Positions 1,927 through 35,657 of a stretch of DNA of 35,657 nt are shown piece after piece; positions within the stretch are counted from its first letter, which is position 1; each line of letters starts with the position of its first letter. Origin of the DNA: a virus (lineage: Duplodnaviria > Heunggongvirae > Uroviricota > Caudoviricetes); IMG/VR virus record IMGVR_UViG_2534681762_000014. One strand, 5' to 3'. The notes under the pieces were generated by a model. That model did not search any database. It was not told where the DNA came from and saw only the letters and a list, made by a program, of their open reading frames with translations. The translations under genes were made by a program, and so were the position numbers.

Positions 1927-2423
1927 CAGTGATGACGCTCAATCTCGTCGAAAAACAGCCAGCAGCTATGCGCCGGATAATTGGTAAGCATCTTGCCGTC
2001 CCTCGCTGGCAGGATACATGTGATTATTATAATCAGATGATGGAGCGCGAACGGCTAACGGTTTGCTTTCATGCACAGTTAAAACAGCGTCACGCAACGA
2101 TGCGTTTTGAAGAAATGAACGACGTCGAACGTGAACGGCTGGTTTGTGCAATTGATGAATTGCGCGGGGCATTCTCAAAACGCCGTCAGGTTGGCGCAAG
2201 TGAGTATGCATATATTAGCTTTTTAACTGTCAGTCAGCGCCGTACTTTATTTATGCATGCCGGATTGACTGAAAAAGAATTCAACCAGCCATACTGGCGA
2301 ATTAATGAAGAGTCATGTTACTGGCGTGATGCTTTATTCCGTGCATTACGTGAATTATTCAGCCTGTTTGAGTATGCACCGACAATTCTGACGTCGGTAA
2401 AACCAGAGCAATATCTGCATTAA
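1923..2423 (+). CDS. B: Replication protein B (helicase-loader type), 166 aa
   Basis: Size and position identical to P2 gpB; start overlaps the upstream stop. Confidence 0.8.
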   Translation: MTVMTLNLVEKQPAAMRRIIGKHLAVPRWQDTCDYYNQMMERERLTVCFHAQLKQRHATMRFEEMNDVERERLVCAIDELRGAFSKRRQVGASEYAYISFLTVSQRRTLFMHAGLTEKEFNQPYWRINEESCYWRDALFRALRELFSLFEYAPTILTSVKPEQYLH

Positions 2424-2486
2424 GTAATTAACCAGAGTTTTTAACGCACTTAATTGTGCGGGGCTTCTTTTTGCCTGGAGAAAGTC

Positions 2487-2711
2487 ATGCATACAGTTTC
2501 TGAAAATCAGTGCGGTAAATACGCATTACTGCTGCAACAGGCCAGAACCGAAGCACAGGCCGACGCAGCGACGCGCTTTTCTTCTCATCTTGACGCCATG
2601 ATTCGCCACATCACAAAGGCGGAGTTATCCCGCGTGGAGATAGTCGAGCTGCTCAGTCAGGAGTCGGAAAAATTTCACAATATCGGATTGTCTCGCGGGG
2701 AGGTGTTTTGA
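2487..2711 (+). CDS. Hypothetical early protein, P2 orf80 position
   Basis: ORF with GGAG upstream of the ATG at 2487; stop overlaps the next start. Confidence 0.45.
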
Positions 2712-3013
2712 TGTCCTGTTCTTGTTCAGTTGTATTACTGAATAACGCCCTAAAAATCGCCGTTATGAAAAATGGCGATTTGTCTCTTATTCAACTTGGT
2801 CTTGATAAAGAAAAACGCGAAATAACTGAGTCTGTTATCGCGATTTATCAGAACGAATTAAACCTCCTGTCTGATGTGGTCAATTTACTTGTTAAACGCG
2901 CTGTGTTTCACAAGCAAATCTCCTCCGTGGATGAACTGACGAAATTAACGACAGAAATCGCCAGCTATTGCGCTGATGAATTTAAAAACCTTAACGACAA
3001 AAGGAACTGGTAA
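2711..3013 (+). CDS. Hypothetical early protein, P2 orf81 position
   Basis: ORF translationally coupled to its neighbours (overlapping stop and start). Confidence 0.45.
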   Translation: MSCSCSVVLLNNALKIAVMKNGDLSLIQLGLDKEKREITESVIAIYQNELNLLSDVVNLLVKRAVFHKQISSVDELTKLTTEIASYCADEFKNLNDKRNW

Positions 3014-3237
3014 TGCCGGACAACGTAGATTTTATTCAGGAACAACAGGCTGAATTACTGGAGCGCCAGATTAACGCGGCAAGGGTAAAACATTGCGGTG
3101 CTTCTGCGCTGGTTTGCGAAGAGTGTGACGCGCCAATACCTGCTGCCCGTCGTGCGGCTTATCCGTCAGCCACGCGTTGTGTTTCCTGTCAGTCAGTCTT
3201 TGAAGCAAAAAACAAACATTACCGGAGAACGGCATGA
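3013..3237 (+). CDS. TraR/DksA-family C4 zinc-finger protein, P2 orf82 position
   Basis: CxxC...CxxC spacing (CEECD...CVSCQ) typical of the TraR/DksA fold. Confidence 0.65.
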   Translation: MPDNVDFIQEQQAELLERQINAARVKHCGASALVCEECDAPIPAARRAAYPSATRCVSCQSVFEAKNKHYRRTA

Positions 3238-3509
3238 GTATTCGTATCGAAATTGGCGAACGTTATGTCGTTACCAGTGACAGCTTTCAGTTTATTCTCC
3301 ACGAGAAAAAGAGAGCTGAAAGCGGTAAAAACGCCGGTCAGGAATGGCTGGCGGTGGTTGGTTATTACCCGAAATTAAGCCAGCTCGTTTCCGGCCTGAT
3401 GCATCACGATATTCTGACCGGAAGCGCAAAGTCTTTTGCTGATTTAAACGCGCAGGTTGAGCAACTCAGCAAGCGTTGTTCAGAGGCTTTTGGCTCATAT
3501 GGCCGTTAA
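3234..3509 (+). CDS. Hypothetical early protein, P2 orf83 position
   Basis: ORF coupled to orf82 and overlapping the A start. Confidence 0.45.
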   Translation: MSIRIEIGERYVVTSDSFQFILHEKKRAESGKNAGQEWLAVVGYYPKLSQLVSGLMHHDILTGSAKSFADLNAQVEQLSKRCSEAFGSYGR

Positions 3510-5778
3510 AGCCTCCGGGCGTTTTGTCCCTCCGTCAGCATTTGCCGCAGGCACCGGTAAGATGTTTACCGGTGCTTATGCATGGAACGCGCCACGCGAG
3601 GCCGTCGGGCGCGAAAGACCCCTTACACGTGATGAGATGCGTCAGGTGCAAGGTGTTTTATCCACGATTAACCGCCTGCCTTACTTTTTGCGCTCACTGT
3701 TTACTTCACGCTATGACTACATCCGGCGCAATAAAAGCCCGGTGCACGGGTTTTATTTCCTCACATCCACTTTTCAGCGTCGTTTATGGCCGCGCATTGA
3801 GCGTGTGAATCAGCGCCATGAAATGAACACCGACGCGTCGTTGCTGTTTCTGGCAGAGCGTGACCACTATGCGCGCCTGCCGGGAATGAATGACAAGGAG
3901 CTGAAAAAGTTTGCCGCCCGTATCTCATCGCAGCTTTTCATGATGTATGAGGAACTCAGCGATGCCTGGGTGGATGCGCATGGCGAAAAAGAATCACTGT
4001 TTACGGATGAGGCTCAGGCTCACCTGTATGGTCATGTTGCTGGCGCTGCACGAGCTTTCAATATTTCCCCTCTCTACTGGAAAAAATACCGTAAAGGACA
4101 GATGACCACGAGGCAGGCATATTCTGCCATTGCCCGTCTGTTTAACGATGAGTGGTGGACTCATCAGCTTAAAGGCCAGCGTATGCGCTGGCATGAAGCG
4201 TTACTGATAGCTGTCGGGGAGGTCAATAAAGACCGTTCTCCTTATGCCAGTAAACACGCCATTCGTGATGTGCGTGCGCGCCGCCAGGCAAATCTGGAAT
4301 TTCTTAAATCGTGTGACCTTGAAAACAGGGAAACCGGCGAGCGCATCGACCTTATCAGTAAGGTGATGGGCAGTATTTCTAATCCTGAAATTCGCCGGAT
4401 GGAGCTGATGAACACCATTGCCGGTATTGAGCGTTACGCCGCCGCAGAGGGTGATGTGGGGATGTTTATCACGCTGACCGCGCCGTCAAAGTATCACCCG
4501 ACACGTCAGGTAGGAAAAGGCGAAAGTAAAACCGTGCAGCTTAATCACGGCTGGAACGATGAGGCATTTAATCCAAAGGATGCGCAGCGTTATCTCTGCC
4601 GTATCTGGAGCCTGATGCGCACGGCATTCAAGGATAATGATTTACAGGTCTACGGTTTGCGTGTCGTCGAGCCACACCACGACGGAACGCCGCACTGGCA
4701 TATGATGCTTTTTTGTAATTCACGCCAGCGTAACCAGATTATCGAAATCATGCGTCGCTATGCGCTCAAAGAGGATGGCGACGAAAGAGGAGCCGCGCGA
4801 AACCGTTTTCAGGCAAAACACCTTAACCGGGGCGGTGCTGCGGGATATATCGCGAAATACATTTCAAAAAACATCGACGGCTATGCACTGGATGGTCAGC
4901 TCGATAACGACACCGGCAGGCCGCTGAAAGACACTGCAGCGGCTGTTACCGCATGGGCGTCAACGTGGCGCATCCCGCAATTTAAAACGGTTGGCCTGCC
5001 GACAATGGGGGCTTACCGTGAACTACGCAAATTGCCTCGTGGCGTCAGCATTGCTGATGAGTTTGACGAACGCGTCGAGGCTGCTCGCGCTGCCGCAGAC
5101 AGCGGTGATTTTGCGTTGTATATCAGCGCGCAGGGTGGGGCAAATGTCCCGCGCGATTGTCAGACTGTCAGGGTTGCCCGTAGCCCGTCGGATGACGTTA
5201 ACGAGTACGAGGAAGAAGTCGAGAGAGTGGTCGGCATTTACGCGCCGCATCTCGGCGCGCGTCATATTCATATCACCAGAACGACGGACTGGCGCATTGT
5301 TCCGAAAGTGCCGGTCGTTGAGCCTTTGACTTTAAAAAGCGGCATCGCCGCGCCTCGGAGTCCTGTCAATAACTGTGGAAAACTCACCGGTGGTGATACT
5401 TCGTTACCGGCTCCCACACCTTCTGAGCACGCCGCAGCAGTGCTTAATCTGGTTGATGACGGTGTTATCGAATGGAGTGACCCGGAGGTCGTGAGGGCGC
5501 TCAGAGGTGCATTAAAACACGGTCGGAGAACGCCAAGTCGTCAGCAAAGAAACGGAAGCCCGTTAAAACCGCATGAAATTGCACCATCGGCCAGAATGAC
5601 CCGGTCGGAAAGAATGCAAATTACCCGTATCCGCGTTGACCTTGCTCAGAAGGGTATCAGGCCGCAGCGATGGGAGCTTGAGGCGCTGGCGCGTGGCGCG
5701 ACCGTAAATTATAACGGGAAAAAATTCACGTATCCGGTCGCTGATGAGTGGCCGGGCTTTACTGGCAGTACCACATAG
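3499..5778 (+). CDS. A: Replication initiation endonuclease A (rolling-circle initiator), about 759 aa
   Basis: Long ORF with P2 gpA-like sequence; start taken at the ATG at 3499 (MAVKASGRF); conserved Tyr-containing region (GAAGYIAKYISK). Confidence 0.85.
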   Translation: MAVKASGRFVPPSAFAAGTGKMFTGAYAWNAPREAVGRERPLTRDEMRQVQGVLSTINRLPYFLRSLFTSRYDYIRRNKSPVHGFYFLTSTFQRRLWPRIERVNQRHEMNTDASLLFLAERDHYARLPGMNDKELKKFAARISSQLFMMYEELSDAWVDAHGEKESLFTDEAQAHLYGHVAGAARAFNISPLYWKKYRKGQMTTRQAYSAIARLFNDEWWTHQLKGQRMRWHEALLIAVGEVNKDRSPYASKHAIRDVRARRQANLEFLKSCDLENRETGERIDLISKVMGSISNPEIRRMELMNTIAGIERYAAAEGDVGMFITLTAPSKYHPTRQVGKGESKTVQLNHGWNDEAFNPKDAQRYLCRIWSLMRTAFKDNDLQVYGLRVVEPHHDGTPHWHMMLFCNSRQRNQIIEIMRRYALKEDGDERGAARNRFQAKHLNRGGAAGYIAKYISKNIDGYALDGQLDNDTGRPLKDTAAAVTAWASTWRIPQFKTVGLPTMGAYRELRKLPRGVSIADEFDERVEAARAAADSGDFALYISAQGGANVPRDCQTVRVARSPSDDVNEYEEEVERVVGIYAPHLGARHIHITRTTDWRIVPKVPVVEPLTLKSGIAAPRSPVNNCGKLTGGDTSLPAPTPSEHAAAVLNLVDDGVIEWSDPEVVRALRGALKHGRRTPSRQQRNGSPLKPHEIAPSARMTRSERMQITRIRVDLAQKGIRPQRWELEALARGATVNYNGKKFTYPVADEWPGFTGSTT

Positions 5779-6081
5779 CTGAATACTTTAATTGACGCTG
5801 AAACTATCAGAGGGGATGTGTTTGATTAAATAAACAATGTGTTGAGATCTACTTACTGGGTTGTTGATAAGAAAATTTAGCTCTTGGTCAGCAAGAGATT
5901 ATACTGATTGCGATTAGGCTAGGGATAACGTGGGCAATTTCTGTTGTTGGAAGCTGGGTTTTACGAGCGAAAAAAGTATGTGATTTGTGGTTTTGCCCTT
6001 ATAGTATGCGCAATTTAGGAGTGAAAACTATAACCATAAGCTTTAATTATTTCTACTTTTTAGGTATGTCCGGAGGCTCTC

Positions 6082-7077
6082 ATGACTACTAAGCCAATGA
6101 GTCGACTATATGAAAAAATCAGCAAGGCGGGGTTTAGCCGTTCATTTATACGCAAAGTCTTACCTTCATGGTGGGACGACAGCCTAGCTGATACACCTTC
6201 AGGTAAGCAGTACGCTAGCCTTCATTTGGCTCGTGTTTTTAGTTTGTCTCCAGAAAGTCTCAAGGATGGTTCTGAATCTGCGTCTTTCAACCTTGGTGGA
6301 AATCATCGCTTTAAACATCGTGTAAATCTTGGTGAGGAAGACCTGAATGTTGCTACTGCCGTTGCATATTCTGCGGCGAGGATTGTAGCAGAGAATTTCA
6401 GTATCCCGTTTAATCCAAACGCAGAACTTAATTGGCAGGCAGTGAGGGATAAACTGCTCAGCGATAAAAAGTGGGTGGATTTGGCTTCTCTGATTGGTTT
6501 TTGCCATTCGTTAGGCATTCCTGTTGTCTACATTAAGAACTTTCCAACGGGTGCGGCAAAAATGGCTGGCCTTGCATTAAGTGTATCTGGTAGGCCAGTA
6601 ATTGTTTTAACCCAAGCTAAAACCCATGGATTTATGCTATTTGATTTGGCTCATGAGCTTGGTCATATTGCACTAGGCCATCTCAATGATCTCAATGGGG
6701 GGGTCCATGTTGATCGCAAAATTGAAGCGCAGTCTACTAACAATCTTGAGGTGGCAGCTAACAAATATGCCTTTGGTTTGATTGGTGGAAAAGAGACTTT
6801 GAGAATAGCACCTACAAGGGGCTATCTCACAGGTGAAAAATTGGCTAGAGCTGCGCTAGTATATGGTACACAGCATTGCATAGAGCCAACTCATGTAGCT
6901 TTGAACTATGGTCACAATTTAGGGCACTGGGGAGTGGCTGTTAACGCTGTTAAAAGTATTTGCGTGGGACAACCGACAGACCAATCTTTAGCTAGGCAGC
7001 TCATGATGGATGCCATCGATCACGAAAATATTAATGACGACGACTTAGAACTTTTAACGACGCTATGTGGGGTTTAA
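6082..7077 (+). CDS. ImmA/IrrE-family zinc metallopeptidase-domain protein, 331 aa, hotspot cargo gene 1
   Basis: HExxH motif in the typical ImmA/IrrE context (FMLFDLAHELGHIALGH at about residues 185-200); good RBS (GGAGG) upstream; AT-rich relative to the phage backbone. Confidence 0.7.
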   Translation: MTTKPMSRLYEKISKAGFSRSFIRKVLPSWWDDSLADTPSGKQYASLHLARVFSLSPESLKDGSESASFNLGGNHRFKHRVNLGEEDLNVATAVAYSAARIVAENFSIPFNPNAELNWQAVRDKLLSDKKWVDLASLIGFCHSLGIPVVYIKNFPTGAAKMAGLALSVSGRPVIVLTQAKTHGFMLFDLAHELGHIALGHLNDLNGGVHVDRKIEAQSTNNLEVAANKYAFGLIGGKETLRIAPTRGYLTGEKLARAALVYGTQHCIEPTHVALNYGHNLGHWGVAVNAVKSICVGQPTDQSLARQLMMDAIDHENINDDDLELLTTLCGV

Positions 7078-7080
7078 GTA

Positions 7081-7603
7081 GTGATCGTTCTTTCAGACAA
7101 TGATGTCATTTTGAAACTAGCGCAGTGTAATTTACTCCGTTACCTTCCTGAGATTTTGGAAGAGGATCCGCGAGGCATCTATGTTAGTCCGACGGCTCGT
7201 TTTCAATTATTACCGCGCAATACTGATAAAGCCATTAAGAAGTGCGGTAGTGTGGCTATTTACGAAAATGTGGAAAGATTTCTAGGAAGTGTGCAAGTTA
7301 TTGATGAAATCAGAAACGATGATTTGCTGATTAAACTTGGTGAGATACCACACATAGATGTCGGCGAACAACAGCTTTTAGCTGCATGCGTTGAGCAACC
7401 AGGAGCTTTGTTCATGACAGGTGACCGTCGATGTTTGCAGGCTGTGATGGACAATCAGACTATTGTCGCTACGGTTCATGCGCGTCTAATTGACTCAGTA
7501 ATAACCTATGAGAGTGCTCTTTTGCTTTCTGTTCGCGTTTTAGGATTTGAGACTCTATATCAACAACTACAAACGAACCCGAATCCAGATGCAATGCTGA
7601 GGA
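7081..7603 (+). pseudogene. PIN-like putative nuclease, N-terminal fragment (residues 1-174); gene interrupted by IS10
   Basis: GTG start 3 bp after the peptidase stop; N-terminal MIVLSDNDVIL resembles the first PIN strand with its acidic residue; later TGD motif; the frame runs into IS10 at 7604. Confidence 0.55.
7595..7603. repeat. IS10 target-site duplication, left copy (TGCTGAGGA)
   Basis: Identical 9-mer directly flanks both IS10 ends; fits the IS10 GCTNAGC preference. Confidence 0.85.
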
Positions 7604-22325: not shown

Positions 22326-23234
22326 ATGCCGATTATCGACCTGAACCAGCTACCCGCACCGGATGTGGTCGAGGAGCTGGACTTTGAAACCATTCTCGCC
22401 GAACGCAAGGCGACACTGATTTCCCTTTACCCGGAAGACCAGCAGGAGGCGGTCGCCCGTACCCTGACGCTGGAATCCGAGCCTCTCGTCAAACTGCTGG
22501 AGGAAAATGCTTATCGTGAACTTATCTGGCGTCAGCGTGTGAATGAGGCCGCACGGGCGGTGATGCTGGCCTGTGCAGCCGGTAATGACCTTGATGTGAT
22601 TGGTGCCAATTACAACACCACACGCCTGATTATCACCCCGGCAGATGATTCGACCATCCCGCCGACACCGGCAGTGATGGAATCTGACACCGATTATCGT
22701 CTGCGTATTCAGCAGGCGTTTGAAGGTTTAAGCGTCGCCGGGTCAGTGGGAGCCTATCAGTATCATGGTCGCAGTGCTGACGGGCGTGTCGCCGATATTT
22801 CTGTCACCAGTCCGTCTCCTGCCTGTGTCACCATCTCTGTGCTGTCACGTGAAAATAACGGTGTGGCATCCGAAGACCTGCTGGCGGTGGTGCGTAACGC
22901 CCTTAATGGCGAGGATGTCAGGCCGGTGGCCGACCGCGTGACCGTACAGTCTGCCGCCATTGTTGAATACCAGATAAACGCCACGCTTTACCTTTACCCA
23001 GGCCCCGAAAGCGAACCCATCCGCGCTGCCGCCGTGAAAAAACTGGAAGCGTATATCACGGCACAACACCGGCTGGGGCGCGACATCCGTCTGTCTGCCA
23101 TTTATGCCGCTTTGCATGTGGAAGGTGTGCAGCGTGTCGAACTGGCTGCACCGCTGGCTGACATCGTGCTCAACAATACGCAGGCATCTTTCTGTATCGA
23201 ATACAGCGTCGTGACCGGAGGCTCGGATGAGTGA
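22326..23234 (+). CDS. J: Baseplate protein J
   Basis: 302 aa, P2 gpJ size and position. Confidence 0.8.
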   Translation: MPIIDLNQLPAPDVVEELDFETILAERKATLISLYPEDQQEAVARTLTLESEPLVKLLEENAYRELIWRQRVNEAARAVMLACAAGNDLDVIGANYNTTRLIITPADDSTIPPTPAVMESDTDYRLRIQQAFEGLSVAGSVGAYQYHGRSADGRVADISVTSPSPACVTISVLSRENNGVASEDLLAVVRNALNGEDVRPVADRVTVQSAAIVEYQINATLYLYPGPESEPIRAAAVKKLEAYITAQHRLGRDIRLSAIYAALHVEGVQRVELAAPLADIVLNNTQASFCIEYSVVTGGSDE

Positions 23235-23838
23235 TTCGCGACTGCTGCCGACTGGCTCATCACCGCTTGAAGTTGCCGCCGCAAAAGCCTGTGCGGAAAT
23301 TGAAAAAACGCCGGTCAGTATTCGTGAGCTGTGGAACCCGGACACCTGCCCGGCAAATCTGCTGCCGTGGCTGGCGTGGTCATTTTCGGTTGACCGCTGG
23401 GATGATAAGTGGCCGGAAGCGACAAAACGCGCAGTTATCCGCGATGCGTATTTCATTCACTGCCATAAGGGCACTATAGGCGCAATCCGGCGTGTGGTGG
23501 AGCCGCTCGGCTATCTGATTGAGGTGAGGGAGTGGTGGCAGCTCAACGAGGAGCCGGGGACGTTCCGTATCGTTGTTGGTGTGCTTGAGCAGGGTATTAC
23601 CGAAGAAATGTATCAGGAGCTGGAGCGTCTTGTTGCTGATGCAAAACCGGCAAGCCGCCATCTGACGGGACTGGCTATCAGCTTAAGTACAACCGGCAAC
23701 ATTTTTGCCGGTGCGGGATGCTATCACGGCGACGCCATGACGGTTTATCCCTACACCCCGGAAGCCATTATTGTCGGAGGGGATTATTTCCCGGCCTCGG
23801 CCATTCATTTAATTGATAACCTGAGAGTAAACGCATGA
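23227..23838 (+). CDS. I: Baseplate/tail-fibre attachment protein I
   Basis: 203 aa; overlapping stop/start with J and H. Confidence 0.75.
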   Translation: MSDSRLLPTGSSPLEVAAAKACAEIEKTPVSIRELWNPDTCPANLLPWLAWSFSVDRWDDKWPEATKRAVIRDAYFIHCHKGTIGAIRRVVEPLGYLIEVREWWQLNEEPGTFRIVVGVLEQGITEEMYQELERLVADAKPASRHLTGLAISLSTTGNIFAGAGCYHGDAMTVYPYTPEAIIVGGDYFPASAIHLIDNLRVNA

Positions 23839-25034
23839 CAGTGAAATACTACGCCATTCTGACTAATCAGGGCGCAGCACGGCTGGCTAACGCGACGATG
23901 CTCGGCAGTAAGCTGAATCTGACGCAAATGGCCGTTGGTGATGCGAATGGTGTCTTGCCGACACCAGACCCGGCACAGACAAAACTGATTAACCAGAAAC
24001 GCATCGCGCCGCTGAATCTTCTGAGTGTTGACCCGAACAACCAGAGCCAGATTATTGCGGAGCAAATCATCCCTGAGAACGAGGGCGGATTCTGGATCCG
24101 TGAGATTGGGCTTTATGATGATGAAGGCGTACTCATTGCGGTGGCGAACTGCCCGGAAACGTACAAACCGCAGTTGCAGGAAGGCAGTGGTCGTACCCAG
24201 ACTATCCGCATGATTCTGGTTGTCACGAATACCGAAGCTATCACGCTGAAAATCGACCCGTCGGTGGTACTGGCGACCCGTAAATACGTGGATGATGAAG
24301 TCCTGGAATTAAGGCTGTATGTGGATGACCAGATGAGAAACCACATTGCCGCACAGGATCCTCATACCCAGTATGCGCAGAAACATAATCCGACATTTAC
24401 CGGAGAACCAAAAGCGCCGACGCCTGCCGCAGGAAATAACACCACGCGGATTGCGACCACTGAGTTTGTTCAGGCCGCTATTACCGCTCTGATTAACGGT
24501 GCGCCTGACACGCTGGACACACTGAAAGAAATTGCCGCGGCCATTAACAATGACCCGAAATTCAGCACCACCATTAACAATGCGCTGTCAGGTAAGCAGC
24601 CACTGGATGAGACGCTGACTCATTTGAGTGGAAAGGATGTTGCTGGTCTTCTCGCATACCTTCAATTGAAATCGGCCGCACAACGGGATGTGGGCACTGG
24701 CGCAAATCAAATCCCGGATATGAACTCTTTTCATATCTCAACGTCACAAACAGGATGGTGCAAATTTCCAAATGGACTAATTTTGCAGTGGGGAGTGACG
24801 ACAACGATATCTGCGTCTGGTAGTGTTTCTTATCCAATACCATTCCCTGGTGGTTGTTTATTTGTGGGTAAAAATACTTATAGTCCAGTGGCTGCAACAA
24901 CCGCTGTGTTTGAAATTGTTAATCCGTCTATGACTGGTTTCACTGCTGCAAACATCGGCAGTCTTACGCAAGGGTCTTCCACTTTTAATGCACCAACACC
25001 GTCAGGAATGGCGTTTTTTGCAATTGGATATTAA
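23835..25034 (+). CDS. H: Tail fibre protein H (constant N-terminal part plus currently joined variable tip), 399 aa
   Basis: N-terminus (MTVKYYAILTNQGAARLANA) is the conserved P2 fibre start; the tip begins inside the inverted repeat at 24661. Confidence 0.8.
   Translation: MTVKYYAILTNQGAARLANATMLGSKLNLTQMAVGDANGVLPTPDPAQTKLINQKRIAPLNLLSVDPNNQSQIIAEQIIPENEGGFWIREIGLYDDEGVLIAVANCPETYKPQLQEGSGRTQTIRMILVVTNTEAITLKIDPSVVLATRKYVDDEVLELRLYVDDQMRNHIAAQDPHTQYAQKHNPTFTGEPKAPTPAAGNNTTRIATTEFVQAAITALINGAPDTLDTLKEIAAAINNDPKFSTTINNALSGKQPLDETLTHLSGKDVAGLLAYLQLKSAAQRDVGTGANQIPDMNSFHISTSQTGWCKFPNGLILQWGVTTTISASGSVSYPIPFPGGCLFVGKNTYSPVAATTAVFEIVNPSMTGFTAANIGSLTQGSSTFNAPTPSGMAFFAIGY
24661..24723. repeat. 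Left inverted repeat of the invertible tail-fibre segment, containing the candidate invertase crossover site
   Basis: About 63 bp with roughly 85 percent identity to the reverse complement of 27133-27195; begins with the 10-bp palindrome TTCAATTGAA exactly where homology starts. Confidence 0.65.
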
Positions 25035-25036
25035 TC

Positions 25037-25468
25037 ATGAGCTATGTATACAGCGCTAAAAAAAACGCTTTCTATCCCGTCGAGTTGCAGGACAACTATG
25101 AGGCATCAGGAACGTGGCCTGCCGATGGGATAGAAGTTGGAGTGGATGTATTTAATATTTTTTCTCAGCTACCACCAGAAGGTAAACAGAGAATTCCTGA
25201 TAGCAATGGAATGCCTGCCTGGGGCGATATTCCGCCGCCCACTCATGATGAATTAGTTGCTGCGGCAACTGCCGAGAAACAGCATCGCATTGATGCTGCG
25301 AATGCATTCATGAGCAGCAGGCAATGGCCGGGAAAGGCCGCGATGGGGCGTCTGAGCGCTGCGGACAAAGTTCAGTATAATTTATGGCTGGATTATCTTG
25401 ATGCGCTGGAGGCAGTGGATACTGCCATCGCGCCGGATATCAACTGGCCTGCTCGCCCGGCTGAGTAG
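25037..25468 (+). CDS. G: Tail fibre assembly chaperone (gpG/Tfa), expressed orientation
   Basis: 143 aa; conserved C-terminal block (SSRQWPGKAA...QYNLWLDYLDALE) shared with the inverted copy at 26402-26830. Confidence 0.8.
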   Translation: MSYVYSAKKNAFYPVELQDNYEASGTWPADGIEVGVDVFNIFSQLPPEGKQRIPDSNGMPAWGDIPPPTHDELVAAATAEKQHRIDAANAFMSSRQWPGKAAMGRLSAADKVQYNLWLDYLDALEAVDTAIAPDINWPARPAE

Positions 25469-25544
25469 GTCACTCGATATCGGGGCTATAGAGATATCAA
25501 TCGCCTCCATTGCAGGCGTTACCAGATTTTAGCCAAATAAATAT

Positions 25545-25568
25545 CCTCCGGCATAGCCGGAGGTTTTT
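25545..25568 (+). terminator. Rho-independent terminator after tfa
   Basis: 8-bp stem CCTCCGGC/GCCGGAGG, 3-nt loop, followed by TTTTT. Confidence 0.6.
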
Positions 25569-25574
25569 CAAATG

Positions 25575-26282
25575 CGCCTATAAGGCTCTCTTACCAGCCG
25601 CGCCCTAACAGGCGCACACGATCTGACATTTGCATCCAACTTCGTTACTTACGGCCCGTAAACGGGCTGCCCGGATAGGGAATCGATAACTGCTCTCCCA
25701 TTTTATCCTCTTCAAGCTGGTGCTTTATGTAATCCTGTATCTTCGCCGTGTTCTTACCCACCGTATCGACGTAATACCCTCTGCACCAGAACTCCCTGTT
25801 CCTGTATTTGAATTTCAAATCACCAAACTGCTCGTAAAGCATCAGACTGCTTTTCCCTTTCAGATATCCCATAAAGCCGGGTACGCTCATTTTGGGCGGG
25901 ATCTCCACAAGCATATGGATATGATCTGCACAGCATTCAGCTTCCAGAATCCGTACACTTTTCCACTCACACAGCTTTCTCAAAATACAGCCTATTGCTC
26001 TACGCTTCTCTCTGTAGAACACCTGTCTTCGGTATTTTGGCGCAAATACTATGTGATATTTACAGTTCCATCGGGTGTGCGCTAAGCTCTTTTCGTTCCC
26101 CATTGGGACCCCCTTTTGATTTCTTGTTTGACACTTGCAGTTGCCAGACCGCAAGGTGTTTTAACAAATCAAAAGGGGTTTTAATAACTGGCTCAAAGCT
26201 GAAAGCTTTCCGGAACCCCCAGCCTAGCTGGGGGTTTTCTGTGCACAAAAAAGCCCCTGCATTTCTGCAGGGGCCTGATATC
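25575..26282 (-). mobile_element. IS200 (IS200/IS605 family), about 0.7 kb; boundaries approximate within some tens of bp
   Basis: Encodes IS200 TnpA; left-end region has two strong hairpins (26216-26234 and 26253-26274), the outer one preceded by A6 on the plus strand (a terminator on the tnpA strand), as described for IS200; no terminal inverted repeats expected. Confidence 0.75.
25645..26106 (-). CDS. tnpA: IS200 transposase TnpA (Y1 HUH type), about 153 aa
   Basis: Translation recognised as IS200 TnpA (MGNEKSLAHTRWNCKYHIVFAPKYRR...HIHMLVEIP...), with HUH motif HIH. Confidence 0.85.
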   Translation of the reverse strand, partial: PMGNEKSLAHTRWNCKYHIVFAPKYRRQVFYREKRRAIGCILRKLCEWKSVRILEAECCADHIHMLVEIPPKMSVPGFMGYLKGKSSLMLYEQFGDLKFKYRNREFWCRGYYVDTVGKNTAKIQDYIKHQLEEDKMGEQLSIPYPGSPFTGRK

Positions 26283-26358
26283 TGGTGCTGGCTGAATGGA
26301 ATCGAACCATCGTCTTTCCGCGTACAATGCGAAAGCTCTACCACTGAGCTAAACCAGC
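26283..26358 (-). tRNA. tRNA-like sequence, possible tRNA-Thr (anticodon UGU) variant or pseudogene, with encoded CCA
   Basis: Reverse complement reads GCTGGTT-TA-GCTCAGTGGTAGAGC-T-TTCGC-ATTGTAC-GCGGA-AAGAC-GATGG-TTCGATT-CCATT-C-AGCCAGC-A-CCA: canonical D-arm and T-loop, 7-bp acceptor stem, anticodon loop centred on TGT, but one extra nucleotide between the T-stem and acceptor stem. Confidence 0.45.
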
Positions 26359-26401
26359 AATGGTGCAGAATAATACCCGGATTCTGATAAAATGCAATAG
26401 C

Positions 26402-26830
26402 TTATTGTGGCTGAACAGGCCATTCGATATCAGGTGCAGTTGAAATGCCGAGAGCTTCCAGCGCATCGAGATAATCCAGCCACAGGTTATACTGCGCCAG
26501 CTCATCCCCCTTCAGTCTGCCAATAGCCGCTTTGCCCGGCCACTGCCTGCTGCTCATGTAATCGTTGGCCTGGCTAATCAACGCCTGTTTTTTAACGTCA
26601 GCTGCTGCAATGAGTTCTTTGCGTGTAGGTGGGGGCATATCCACCCATACTGGCATTCCATCGTCTGCTCCCAGAGCTTTTCCAGGTGGTGGTGACCCTG
26701 TAAATGTACTGACTATATCATCGCTGATATCAATCATATCAGACATGTCCCATCCCGCCGATTCATAAGACGACAGCCAGGATTTCGGGAAAAAGTTCAC
26801 AGTCGTTGCAGACCATTTATATCCGTTCAT
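26402..26830 (-). CDS. Alternative tail fibre assembly chaperone (Tfa'), inverted orientation
   Basis: 142 aa; same conserved C-terminal block as the tfa at 25037-25468, divergent N-terminus; convergent with it. Confidence 0.75.
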   Translation of the reverse strand: MNGYKWSATTVNFFPKSWLSSYESAGWDMSDMIDISDDIVSTFTGSPPPGKALGADDGMPVWVDMPPPTRKELIAAADVKKQALISQANDYMSSRQWPGKAAIGRLKGDELAQYNLWLDYLDALEALGISTAPDIEWPVQPQ

Positions 26831-26834
26831 TTAT

Positions 26835-27195
26835 TTAGCTCCCGAACGCCAGCCAGAATATTGTCATTGTACTGGCTGTATTCGTTGTGTATATGCTGAA
26901 TCGCGACGTGCTATCTACATTGACGTTGAAACTGACAGGTCCGGTTCCATAGAGGCCGGGGTTAACCAGAGCAGGAATCACACAGGAGCAACGGTTAGGA
27001 AACGGAACAGGAAAAAACACAGCGTTACCTGATGAACCACCGGTGATGTTTGGTGCATTTCCCCCATCAATACCATGCCATTTGGAAACCGGTAATAAAA
27101 TGCCATGGTTGTCGAACCGCCCGTAAAACTGCTCATATCCGGTATCTGATTCGCACCAGTACCCACGTCTCGTTGCGCGGCCGATTTCAATTGAA
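26835..27195 (-). pseudogene. Alternative tail-fibre variable tip (Hv'), frameshifted
   Basis: Minus strand encodes LKSAAQRDVGTGANQIPDMSSF..., homologous to the H tip, then changes frame (two ORFs, 26978-27235 and 26835-27020); segment length is out of phase with the H frame. Confidence 0.6.
27133..27195. repeat. Right inverted repeat of the invertible tail-fibre segment
   Basis: Reverse complement matches 24661-24723; the TTCAATTGAA palindrome is at 27186-27195. Confidence 0.65.
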
Positions 27196-27262
27196 CGTTT
27201 AAGAAAATGCAGAGATAACGGCTAACTGGCATCATCTCCGGTTTTTATTCAGGGGATCCATC

Positions 27263-27856
27263 ATGCTTATTGGCTATGTCCGCGTATCAACAAATGACCA
27301 GAATACGGAATTGCAGCGTAACGCGCTGGAGTGTGCAGGATGTGAGCTGATTTTTGAGGACAAAATCAGCGGCACGAAGTCCGACTGGCCGGGACTGAAA
27401 AAACTGCTCAGGACATTATCGGAGGGGGATACACTGGTAGTCTGGAAGCTGGACCGGCTGGGGCGTAGTATGCGGCATCTGGTCATTCTGGTTGAGGAGC
27501 TGCGCGAACGCGGCATTAATTTTCGCAGCCTGACGGATGCCATTGATACCAGCACGCCAATGGGGCGTTTTTTCTTTCATGTGATGGGTGCCCTGGCTGA
27601 AATGGAACGAGAACTCATTGTCGAGCGGACTCGCACCGGACTGGAAGCGGCCAGAGCTAAAGGTCGTATTGGTGGCAGACGTCCGAAGCTCACCGCGAGT
27701 GAGTGGGAACAGGCAGGACGGTTGCTGGCTGCGGGTGAATCACGTCAACGCGTGGTGCTGATTTTTGATATTGGCCTGTCCACGCTCTATAAAAAATTCC
27801 CCTCATCAGCGGCAAAGAATAAATTGTGTCATCCCTTAGCCAACCGGGACAAATAG
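27263..27856 (+). CDS. Serine recombinase, Din-family DNA invertase (Pin/Gin/Cin/Hin-like), 197 aa
   Basis: N-terminal catalytic domain with the active-site Ser in MLIGYVRVSTNDQ, the SMRHL and GRFFFHVMGALAEMERE blocks, and a C-terminal HTH; sits immediately outside the right inverted repeat. Confidence 0.9.
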   Translation: MLIGYVRVSTNDQNTELQRNALECAGCELIFEDKISGTKSDWPGLKKLLRTLSEGDTLVVWKLDRLGRSMRHLVILVEELRERGINFRSLTDAIDTSTPMGRFFFHVMGALAEMERELIVERTRTGLEAARAKGRIGGRRPKLTASEWEQAGRLLAAGESRQRVVLIFDIGLSTLYKKFPSSAAKNKLCHPLANRDK

Positions 27857-27915
27857 CCTGACATCTCCGGCACAACTGAAAATATCACTCACCCATTAAC
27901 CACGGAGTTAAACGG

Positions 27916-29106
27916 ATGAGTGACTATCATCACGGCGTGCAGGTGCTGGAGATTAACGACGGCACCCGTGTCATTTCCACCGTATCCACTGCCATTGTTG
28001 GCATGGTCTGCACGGCCAGCGATGCGGATGCGGAAACCTTCCCCCTCAATAAACCGGTGCTGATTACCAATGTGCAGAGTGCAATTGCAAAGGCCGGTAA
28101 AAAAGGCACGCTGGCGGCATCGTTGCAGGCTATCGCCGACCAGTCAAAACCGGTCACCGTTGTCGTGCGTGTGGAAGACGGCACCGGCGACGACGAGGAA
28201 ACAAAACTCGCGCAGACCGTTTCCAATATCATCGGCACCACCGACGAAAACGGTCAGTACACCGGACTGAAAGCCCTGCTGGCGGCGGAGTCGGTAACTG
28301 GTGTTAAACCGCGTATTCTCGGCGTGCCGGGACTGGACACCAAAGAGGTGGCTGTTGCACTGGCATCCGTCTGTCAGAAGCTGCGCGCTTTCGGATATAT
28401 CAGCGCATGGGGCTGTAAGACCATTTCCGAGGTGAAAGCCTACCGCCAGAATTTCAGCCAGCGTGAGCTGATGGTCATCTGGCCGGATTTCCTCGCATGG
28501 GATACGGTCACCAGTACCACCGCCACCGCGTATGCCACCGCCCGTGCGCTGGGTCTGCGCGCTAAAATCGACCAGGAGCAGGGCTGGCATAAAACGCTGT
28601 CCAACGTCGGGGTAAACGGTGTTACCGGCATCAGCGCATCTGTGTTCTGGGATTTGCAGGAGTCCGGCACCGATGCTGACCTGCTTAACGAGTCAGGCGT
28701 CACTACGCTGATTCGCCGCGACGGTTTCCGATTCTGGGGTAACCGTACCTGCTCTGATGACCCGCTGTTCCTCTTTGAAAACTACACCCGCACCGCGCAG
28801 GTGCTGGCCGACACGATGGCTGAGGCGCACATGTGGGCGGTGGACAAGCCCATCACTGCAACGCTGATTCGCGACATCGTTGACGGCATCAATGCCAAAT
28901 TCCGTGAGCTGAAAACAAACGGCTATATCGTGGATGCGACCTGCTGGTTCAGCGAAGAATCCAACGATGCGGAAACCCTCAAGGCCGGAAAACTGTATAT
29001 CGACTACGACTATACCCCGGTGCCTCCTCTTGAAAACCTGACCCTGCGCCAGCGTATTACCGATAAATACCTGGCAAATCTGGTCACCTCGGTTAACAGC
29101 AATTAA
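27916..29106 (+). CDS. FI: Contractile tail sheath protein
   Basis: 396 aa, P2 FI size and position. Confidence 0.85.
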   Translation: MSDYHHGVQVLEINDGTRVISTVSTAIVGMVCTASDADAETFPLNKPVLITNVQSAIAKAGKKGTLAASLQAIADQSKPVTVVVRVEDGTGDDEETKLAQTVSNIIGTTDENGQYTGLKALLAAESVTGVKPRILGVPGLDTKEVAVALASVCQKLRAFGYISAWGCKTISEVKAYRQNFSQRELMVIWPDFLAWDTVTSTTATAYATARALGLRAKIDQEQGWHKTLSNVGVNGVTGISASVFWDLQESGTDADLLNESGVTTLIRRDGFRFWGNRTCSDDPLFLFENYTRTAQVLADTMAEAHMWAVDKPITATLIRDIVDGINAKFRELKTNGYIVDATCWFSEESNDAETLKAGKLYIDYDYTPVPPLENLTLRQRITDKYLANLVTSVNSN

Positions 29107-34299: not shown

Positions 34300-34518
34300 A
34301 TGTTTCATTGTCCTTTATGCCAGCATGCCGCACATGCGCGTACAAGCCGCTATATCACTGACACGACAAAAGAGCGTTATCACCAGTGTCAGAACGTGAA
34401 TTGCAGCGCCACGTTCATCACTTATGAGTCGGTACAGCGATACATCGTGAAGCCGGGAGAAGTCCACGCCGTAAGGCCGCACCCATTGCCGTCAGGGCAG
34501 CAAATTATGTGGATGTAA
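34300..34518 (+). CDS. ogr: Late-gene transcription activator Ogr (zinc finger), 72 aa
   Basis: MFHCPLCQHAAHARTSRY... with CxxC...C...C spacing; last phage gene before the right junction. Confidence 0.85.
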   Translation: MFHCPLCQHAAHARTSRYITDTTKERYHQCQNVNCSATFITYESVQRYIVKPGEVHAVRPHPLPSGQQIMWM

Positions 34519-34528
34519 TCACAAAAAT

Positions 34529-34556
34529 AGCCCCTCAGTTGAGGGGCTTTATTTAT
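34529..34556 (+). terminator. Rho-independent terminator after ogr
   Basis: Stem AGCCCCTC/GAGGGGCT with 4-nt loop, then a T-rich tract. Confidence 0.65.
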
Positions 34557-34646
34557 GGTCGATGTGGACGCTATGTGGACGGTGGTTGATATAAATCCAT
34601 TTATATCATCAGGTTAGGTGCTTTTTTGTGACACCATCCCTGTCTT

Positions 34647-34673
34647 CCCCCACATGATGTGGGGGTTTTTTTT
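34647..34673 (+). terminator. Strong Rho-independent terminator (C5ACA-loop-TGTG5 followed by T8), probably host-derived
   Basis: 8-bp GC-rich stem with an 8-T run; lies between the prophage end and fieF. Confidence 0.7.
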
Positions 34674-34754
34674 ATCCTCAATTTGCCTGCTGCTTAATGC
34701 ATTGCAGATGATTTGCTTCCGTTATACTAGCGTCAGTTGATAGCGGGAGTATTT

Positions 34755-35657
34755 ATGAATCAATCTTATGGACGGCTGGTCAGTCGGGCGGCGATTGCTG
34801 CGACGGCGATGGCTTCGCTGCTATTGCTGATTAAAATTTTTGCATGGTGGTATACCGGGTCGGTGAGTATTCTCGCCGCGCTGGTGGATTCGCTGGTGGA
34901 TATCGGCGCGTCGTTGACGAATTTACTGGTGGTGCGATATTCCCTGCAACCTGCCGACGATAATCACTCGTTTGGTCACGGTAAAGCTGAGTCCCTCGCG
35001 GCGCTGGCGCAAAGTATGTTTATCTCCGGTTCGGCACTATTCCTGTTTTTGACGGGTATTCAACATCTGGTATCTCCAACACCGATGACAGATCCAGGCG
35101 TCGGGGTTATCGTGACAATTGTGGCGCTAATTTGTACGATTATCCTTGTCTCGTTTCAGCGTTGGGTGGTGCGCCGGACGCAAAGCCAGGCGGTGAGGGC
35201 TGATATGCTACATTACCAGTCTGATGTTATGATGAACGGCGCAATTCTGCTGGCGCTGGGGTTGTCCTGGTACGGCTGGCATCGCGCCGATGCTCTGTTT
35301 GCATTGGGAATCGGCATCTATATTTTATATAGCGCGTTACGCATGGGATATGAGGCGGTACAGTCATTACTGGATCGCGCATTGCCTGATGAGGAACGGC
35401 AAGAAATTATTGATATCGTGACTTCCTGGCCGGGTGTTAGCGGCGCTCACGATCTTCGCACGCGGCAGTCAGGGCCGACCCGCTTTATTCAGATTCATTT
35501 GGAAATGGAAGACTCTCTGCCTTTGGTTCAGGCACATATGGTGGCGGATCAGGTAGAGCAGGCTATTTTACGGCGTTTTCCGGGATCGGATGTGATTATC
35601 CATCAGGACCCCTGTTCCGTCGTACCCAGGGAGGGTAAACGGTCTATGCTTTCATAA
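34755..35657 (+). CDS. fieF: Cation-diffusion-facilitator family Fe/Zn efflux transporter FieF (YiiP), 300 aa, host gene
   Basis: Translation recognised as E. coli FieF/YiiP ([38 protein letters not shown]...); complete, ends at the window edge. Confidence 0.9.

Follow-up and report, generated by a model that had tools for sequence, protein, structure and literature searches.

The locus at positions 26835-27195 of the window (the whole 35,657-nt stretch of DNA that was analysed, a P2-like prophage of Escherichia coli) is best read as the silent cassette in an invertible tail-fibre segment of the Gin/Cin/Pin type, carried by an otherwise intact-looking prophage, with the alternative fibre tip turned into a pseudogene by a frameshift and with the switch itself most likely frozen or nearly so, and we assign to this reading, taken as a whole, a probability of about 0.8. 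In the model we favor, recombination by a serine invertase, at the core dinucleotides 24661-62 and 27194-95, would fuse the tail-fibre gene H to either of two tips, each then followed by its own tail-fibre assembly protein (TAP). The silent tip has lost one base at 27061-27065, the loss being inherited in every known copy of the allele, and a flip would be expected to result in an H protein of 347 aa devoid of the Gp53-like_C receptor-binding tip. The switch would be frozen or nearly frozen while expressing the intact tip, and the unused tip would be decaying. What is seen here is ordinary decay and not a new mechanism, and the locus is a decayed member of the Gin/Cin/Pin fibre-inversion kind.

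A near-identical copy of the prophage is found in E. coli Z1323PEC0014, where it occupies the stretch between pflA and pflB, with the integrase at one end and ogr at the other. No pseudogenes are annotated in the prophage copy of this strain, and the element is thus not one that is generally decaying. The integrase adjoins pflA and ogr adjoins pflB, the pflB-pflA pair being split by the prophage (the pflA/pflB-flanking positions are at about 2369-4193 and 34300-35657 of the window, from the L013 coordinates minus 1000). The features of the invertible segment and its surroundings are listed in Table 1. The segment is bounded by an 83-nt inverted repeat, 81% complementary, pairing 24649-24731 with 27125-27207. 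The constant N-terminus of the fibre is encoded outside of the segment and two convergent cassettes, each composed of a tip and a TAP gene, are found inside, a layout also seen in three further loci (L011, L012, and L019), and the genes for sheath and tube come after the invertase gene.

Table 1. Features of the tail-fibre inversion locus, in window coordinates.
Feature	Position	Strand	Evidence
Tail-fibre gene H, 399 aa as assembled	23835..25034	+	ORF list; Pfam
H constant part, up to Leu276		+	Pfam Phage_tail_fib 1-150
Expressed intact H tip	24663-25034	+	Pfam Gp53-like_C 1-84/84
TAP of the expressed tip, 143 aa	25037..25468	+	Pfam Caudo_TAP 2-131/131
IS200C inside the invertible segment	25542..26246	-	Pfam Y1_Tnp; BLAST breakpoints vs L001/L003; PGAP annotation in CP148268
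Intrinsic terminator after tRNA-Thr	26276-26251	-	Terminator scan
tRNA-Thr(UGU) inside the invertible segment	26283..26358	-	ARAGORN; Rfam tRNA 56.4 bits
TAP of the silent cassette, intact, 142 aa	26402..26830	-	Pfam Caudo_TAP 3-131/131
Silent alternative H tip, pseudogene, 5'-truncated	26835..27193	-	Translations; homologues P0001/P0002; DNA alignment; Pfam
Site of the 1-nt deletion, plus-strand C5 run = minus-strand G5 (ATG GGG GAA)	27061..27065	-	Alignment, sequence check
H-side crossover site TTCTCGCATACC-TT-CAATTGAAATCG, core 24661-24662	24649..24674	+	Inverted repeat, arm alignment, consensus scoring
Invertase-side crossover site TTTTCTTAAACG-TT-CAATTGAAATCG, core 27194-27195	27182..27207	-	Arm alignment, scoring
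Din-family serine invertase, 197 aa	27263..27856	+	Pfam Resolvase + HTH_7; Mu Gin match; 120-relative column counts

Translations of the minus strand bear out the original prediction that the alternative tip is split across two reading frames. Frame A, which keeps the phase of H through the repeat, reads NVQLKSAAQRDVGTGANQIPDMSSFTGGSTTMAFYYRFPNGMVLMG from 27193 to about 27062 and continues past the lesion for 27 unrelated residues, up to a premature TGA at 26978-26980. Frame B reads GGNAPNITGGSSGNAVFFPVPFPNRCSCVIPALVNPGLYGTGPVSFNVNVDSTSRFSIYTTNTASTMTIFWLAFGS (including GGNAPNITGGSSGNAVFFPVPFPNRC) from about 27060 to 26835 and ends in WLAFGS*, with the stop codon at 26835-26837. Counting from the first inner codon, at 27193, through the final base of the stop codon, at 26835, gives 359 nt, 1 nt too few for complete codons, and the length to the stop is indeed out of phase with H, as had been stated. 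When the two frames are joined with one extra G, the resulting 119-aa tip matches P0001 (80% identity, E=2.8e-55) and P0002 (75% identity, E=4e-50), both of them intact proteins, and it is only with both frames joined that the Pfam profile Gp53-like_C (PF21882) is covered from position 1 to 83 of 84. These matches, which are far beyond chance, uphold the proposed homology of the silent tip to intact fibre tips. A Pfam search with the H-phase product alone resulted in no match, Gp53-like_C being undetectable in its truncated C-terminus, and frame B alone covers profile positions 13-83 only, so that in the silent tip the domain as a whole is spread over two frames instead of one continuous one.

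Alignment of the window DNA with the two intact homologues contains exactly one gap, of one base (column 139), with the window reading ATGGG-GGAAAT versus ATGGGCGGAAAT and ATGGGTGGGAAT in the intact homologues. The lesion falls in the Gly-Gly codons after FPNGMVLM, at which point the intact homologues read ATG GGC GGA or ATG GGT GGG. As the part of the tip downstream of the shift is stop-free and is identical to the intact proteins at 62/74 and 61/74 positions (82-84%), the deletion is the only disabling lesion in the tip, and, judging from the sequence, it is probably of recent date. Alignment to intact tips, which had been proposed as a means of locating the indel, did locate it, but at 27061-27065 and not at the suspected 26980-27020, a region that is merely where the shifted frame A meets a stop. 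In silico inversion of 24663-27193 converts the 399-aa H into a protein of 347 aa (276 constant residues, 44 of the tip, and 27 out of frame) that lacks the Gp53-like_C tip domain, in agreement with the original expectation that a flip would fuse H to a truncated tip, and a fibre of this type is presumably non-functional. The same inversion with one G added produces an H of 395 aa.

The split tip is shared by eight assemblies, these being the window, three complete genomes (L001-3), three draft genomes (L006-8, on contigs of 110-125 kb), and one IMG/VR contig (L017), and they come from different hosts, countries, and projects. The G5 run was read in the complete and the draft genomes, and the split tip is also seen in the IMG/VR contig. 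In the three complete E. coli genomes, whose carriers were a human, a human from Korea, and a dog from Korea, a stretch of 461 nt that surrounds the tip shows 100% identity, and these genomes differ from the window at 222-378 positions per approximately 10 kb. As the frameshift is shared by eight assemblies that differ by SNPs and most of which lack IS200, it is real and not a sequencing error. Of the two options originally left standing, a pseudogene or a sequencing indel, the former is the one that holds, and with a single indel relative to intact homologues, reproduced across independent assemblies, we consider the silent tip a true pseudogene with high confidence. No intact allele closer than 80% was returned in a search of 5.8 billion proteins. 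A nucleotide search of 5426 complete E. coli genomes and 50,697 phage records uncovered no intact copy of the silent tip, producing only the three identical frameshifted copies along with short matches to the repeat arms, and intact relatives surfaced only at the protein level. An exact search of IMG/VR for the shared 19-mer TTCAATTGAAATCGGCCGC added one further copy of the lineage, and a 70-aa fragment of the tip (P0003) is on record for 17 contigs, all but one being 50-200 kb in size.

Other readings of the split tip need to be weighed against this evidence. A sequencing or assembly error at the homopolymer, with the real tip intact, would agree with the position of the lesion in a run of five bases, a context of length miscalls on some platforms, but with the lesion identical in eight assemblies, the long draft contigs included, with lineages distinguishable by both SNPs and the presence of IS200, and with no intact version in the protein collection, such an error is hardly credible. 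It is scarcely more probable that the tip is still made, either through recoding, with the ribosome slipping by -1 on G GGG GAA or the polymerase slipping, or through phase variation by slipped-strand events, reversible between G5 and G6 and superimposed on the inversion switch. While a -1 shift at the G run restores exactly the homologous frame, and while this frame is stop-free and well conserved downstream, G GGG GAA does not fit the canonical slippery heptamer, X XXY YYZ, the intact homologues, with their GGC GGA or GGT GGG, possess no conserved slippery site, and all eight assembled copies are G5, none being G6. It is also general knowledge that a run of five Gs is on the short side for slippage to be efficient.

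We give equally little credit to frame B being a free-standing gene never meant for fusion to H. This frame is open from 27221 to 26835 and PGAP calls an ORF there; however, the first 50 or so residues have no homologues, homology over that stretch residing in frame A, the Pfam profile is not entered before position 13, and the ORF starts outside the invertible segment. Moreover, PGAP gives two gene models for identical DNA, an ORF of 125 aa in L001 and L002 (5049-5426, equivalent to window 27212-26835) and one of 70 aa in L003 (5214-5426, equivalent to window 27047-26835). Both models are named 'gp53-like domain-containing protein' and neither is flagged as a pseudogene. The RefSeq annotation hides the frameshift, and pipelines counting alternative receptor-binding tips would overcount here.

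The crossover point was placed at 27194, up to which the invertase-side spacer is homologous to many other phages, and where the sequence lines up with Din-family sites from the literature (PMC3241671 Table 3). Sites were scored at seven specified positions per half-site, against the Din consensus TTCNNNNAAACN-AA-NGTTTNNNNGAA (PMC3241671 Table 3). The orientation and position of the window sites, their TT/AA core, and their outer halves (6/7 each) fit the Din pattern, but the inner halves score 2/7, which is about chance, making 8/14 for each site, versus 11-13/14 for the sites of relatives with an R42 invertase. The inner half-site CAATTGAAATCG is identical in both sites (24663-24674 and 27182-27193) and codes for QLKS. 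The outer half on the H side is identical to that of phage 500465-2 (GGTATGCGAGAA), and the outer half on the invertase side is identical to those of L009 and L011. The possibility of the real crossover being elsewhere in the 83-nt repeat was rejected, as a scan of 23000-28000 found no better Din-like site. From their sequence, the window sites would be expected to function poorly, yet hixR works with one half-site that scores 2/7 by the same count, and a score of 8/14 is therefore no proof of inactivity.

The relatives have GGTTTGGGAGAA, coding for GLGE, at the inner half-site, and E. coli LR-29-1 (L012) has the intermediate CAATTGGGAGAA. A silent, 5'-truncated tip of the QLKSAAQRD type along with its TAP gene is also found on four IMG/VR contigs to which the search with the 19-mer led (L014, at 4135-7192, L015, L016, and L018), just downstream of the expressed fibre and its TAP and in direct orientation. 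No invertase was found on these contigs by tblastn, and the tip and TAP may represent an orphaned second cassette; the contigs are uninformative as to the function of the unusual half-site.

The invertase can be aligned with Mu Gin (3uj3) along residues 1-184 (E=1.1e-92) and retains Ser9 as well as both domains, and its adjacency to the segment, its catalytic serine, and its HTH domain place it in the Din subfamily, with the caveat of R42W, at an invariant position. In a comparison with the 120 closest cluster representatives (up to 96% identity), three residues stand out: W42 (codon 27386-27388) is R in 120/120 relatives, T125 (codon 27635-27637) is A in 120/120, and V165 (codon 27755-27757) is A in 118/120. 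The invertase is present in all the copies examined; both W42 and V165 could be read from L001-3 as well as L006-8, W42 also from L017, and T125 is found only in the window and in the IS200-bearing CP148268. R42 aligns with R45 of the Tn3 and gamma-delta resolvases, and its counterpart in Hin, Arg-43, is reportedly what Adams et al. dealt with in 1997. In Tn3 resolvase, R45A and R45K permit no resolution in vivo and cleave at 0.0034 and 0.022 times the parental rate, respectively (PMC2794168 Table 2), and R45 mutants retain some activity in vitro, in an activated background (PMC2794168). The substitutions would thus point to a loss of invertase activity, and, by analogy with the resolvase mutants, the W42 enzyme may be leaky. 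A separate observation concerns the assemblies themselves. Two draft contigs with an R42 invertase, L009 (1-120) and L010 (1-1850), end at or near the invertible segment, and in drafts of the W42 lineage the assembly continues across it without a break, on contigs of 110-125 kb; from these two cases, the R42 contig ends could stem from a mixture of orientations in the cultures that were sequenced.

In 8/8 assemblies it is the intact tip that is fused to H, and both orientations were not encountered among these eight assembled copies. In a control of 41 evenly sampled full-length E. coli matches, the tip of the 500465-2 cassette was found under a long 'phage tail protein' in 15 and as a short silent ORF in 22, and L019 and L011, which represent the same phage type, have opposite orientations. 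As the eight copies are related by descent, their uniform orientation carries less weight than eight independent draws would, and we consider it suggestive of a frozen switch; the expressed tip is as rare as the tRNA carried by the segment, and the orientation statistics for the lineage amount to eight related copies. On balance, we incline to the view that the switch is frozen or almost frozen in the productive orientation and that the unused cassette is decaying under relaxed selection. The original suggestion, of a switch that may be one-sided, survives as far as the dead tip is concerned but needs to be amended in that, given R42W in the invertase, the inner half-sites off consensus, and the single orientation in all eight copies, the switch is probably mostly inert instead of flipping into a dead state. 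The frameshift and R42W occur together in all copies from which both could be read, and any order of the lesions would be an inference.

A competing scenario, which we find distinctly less likely, is of a dead tip with a switch that still flips, through residual activity of the W42 enzyme or through a Din invertase acting in trans, resulting in the one-sided switch of the original suggestion, which would alternate between a working fibre and a truncated one and so be ON/OFF for infectious particles. Action in trans is known for Din invertases that other elements encode, e14 Pin being an example, the resident enzyme is not truncated and retains Ser9 along with both domains, the two sites agree in their core dinucleotides, and their outer halves score 6/7. 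The in vitro activity of the Tn3 R45 mutants and the tolerance of hixR for one poor half-site also speak for this scenario. This scenario has to contend, however, with substitutions at positions conserved in 118-120 of 120 relatives (R42W, A165V, and, in a sub-lineage, A125T), with an inner half-site at 2/7 in both sites, and with a uniform orientation for a cassette whose canonical version is seen in both. A more elaborate version, in which inversion at a low rate would turn the production of adsorption-competent particles ON and OFF, and in which an occasional reversion from G5 to G6 might open up a second receptor specificity, strikes us as very improbable; if true, it would represent a two-tier host-range switch, of inversion plus homopolymer.

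Decay of a frozen or nearly frozen switch, our preferred reading, can be placed among the known systems. The G segment of Mu with Gin and the C segment of P1 with Cin follow the same plan, of an invertase next to a segment with two convergent cassettes of tip and TAP, with the constant N-terminal part of the fibre outside and with the crossover inside the fibre gene. Unlike in Mu and P1, the host element here is a P2-like prophage, one tip is frameshifted, the invertase is R42W, the inner half-sites mismatch gix/cix, and the segment contains a tRNA gene and IS200. As to the e14 P segment with Pin, the sites of the closest R42 relatives are identical or near-identical to pixR, with L010 carrying pixR exactly (TTCTCCCAAACC AA CGTTTATGAAAA). 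The window outer half CGTTTAAGAAAA is one base off the respective half of pixR, and the inner half is CGATTTCAATTG, versus TTCTCCCAAACC in pixR. By layout and recombinase, the P2-like prophage versions with pix-like sites are the closest group. One of these comparisons is with Escherichia phage 500465-2 (Peduoviridae, Gemsvirus) and its prophage relatives, which have the same order of H, TAP, TAP', tip', and invertase; in 500465-2, however, the sites score 13/14 each, the silent tip is intact, no tRNA gene is present between the TAP genes, and both orientations occur among genomes. The flagellar Hin/hix switch of Salmonella employs a recombinase of the same subfamily, but it controls a promoter and not a fibre tip, and while hixR works with one poor half-site, here both sites carry a poor half.

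The two intact homologues of the silent tip belong to different settings. P0001 is a short fibre of 182 aa on a 40.7-kb phage contig, stand-alone and not part of an inversion switch, while P0002 is a silent cassette in a prophage remnant. Both are similar to the silent tip over its whole length, both have a Caudo_TAP gene following them, and the frame is unbroken in both, with GGC GGA or GGT GGG in the place of the GGGGA of the window. In L005 (5346-8037), P0002 is part of a two-cassette arrangement at the edge of the prophage remnant, with recognisable crossover sites, and no invertase gene is called between P0002 and a sulfate transporter gene.

Dead cassettes and locked invertible segments are familiar, and the locus opens no long-standing question. 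What is specific here is the occurrence of three lesions together, in the tip, in the recombinase, and in the sites, within an otherwise intact prophage. The locus shows how a phase-variable host-range switch decays, which matters for annotation and for judging the host-range potential of prophages.

The segment also carries cargo. The IS200C tnpA gene occupies 25645-26103 as annotated in the CP148268 copy, the longest open frame being 25645-26154, and STnc490, the 5'-UTR sRNA of IS200C, is at 26113-26236 (Rfam). Among the loci checked, IS200C is present only in the window and in CP148268 (L002), which makes it a recent insertion within the lineage; it is absent from seven of the nine checked loci with an intact cassette, including CP039404, CP070229, and L006-8, and the repeat spacing in L017 (1318/3141) also implies no IS200C. 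The tRNA-Thr(UGU) gene sits between the two convergent TAP genes and is found in only three of the 5426 E. coli genomes, always in this cassette, whereas in the canonical relatives (L011, L012, and L019) the TAP genes overlap and no tRNA gene is present. A promoter-like TTGCAT-16-TATTAT upstream of the tRNA gene, seen by eye, was not called by the scan. The nearest phage relatives of this tRNA are the tRNA-Thr of N4-like and Klebsiella phages, at approximately 77-81% identity.
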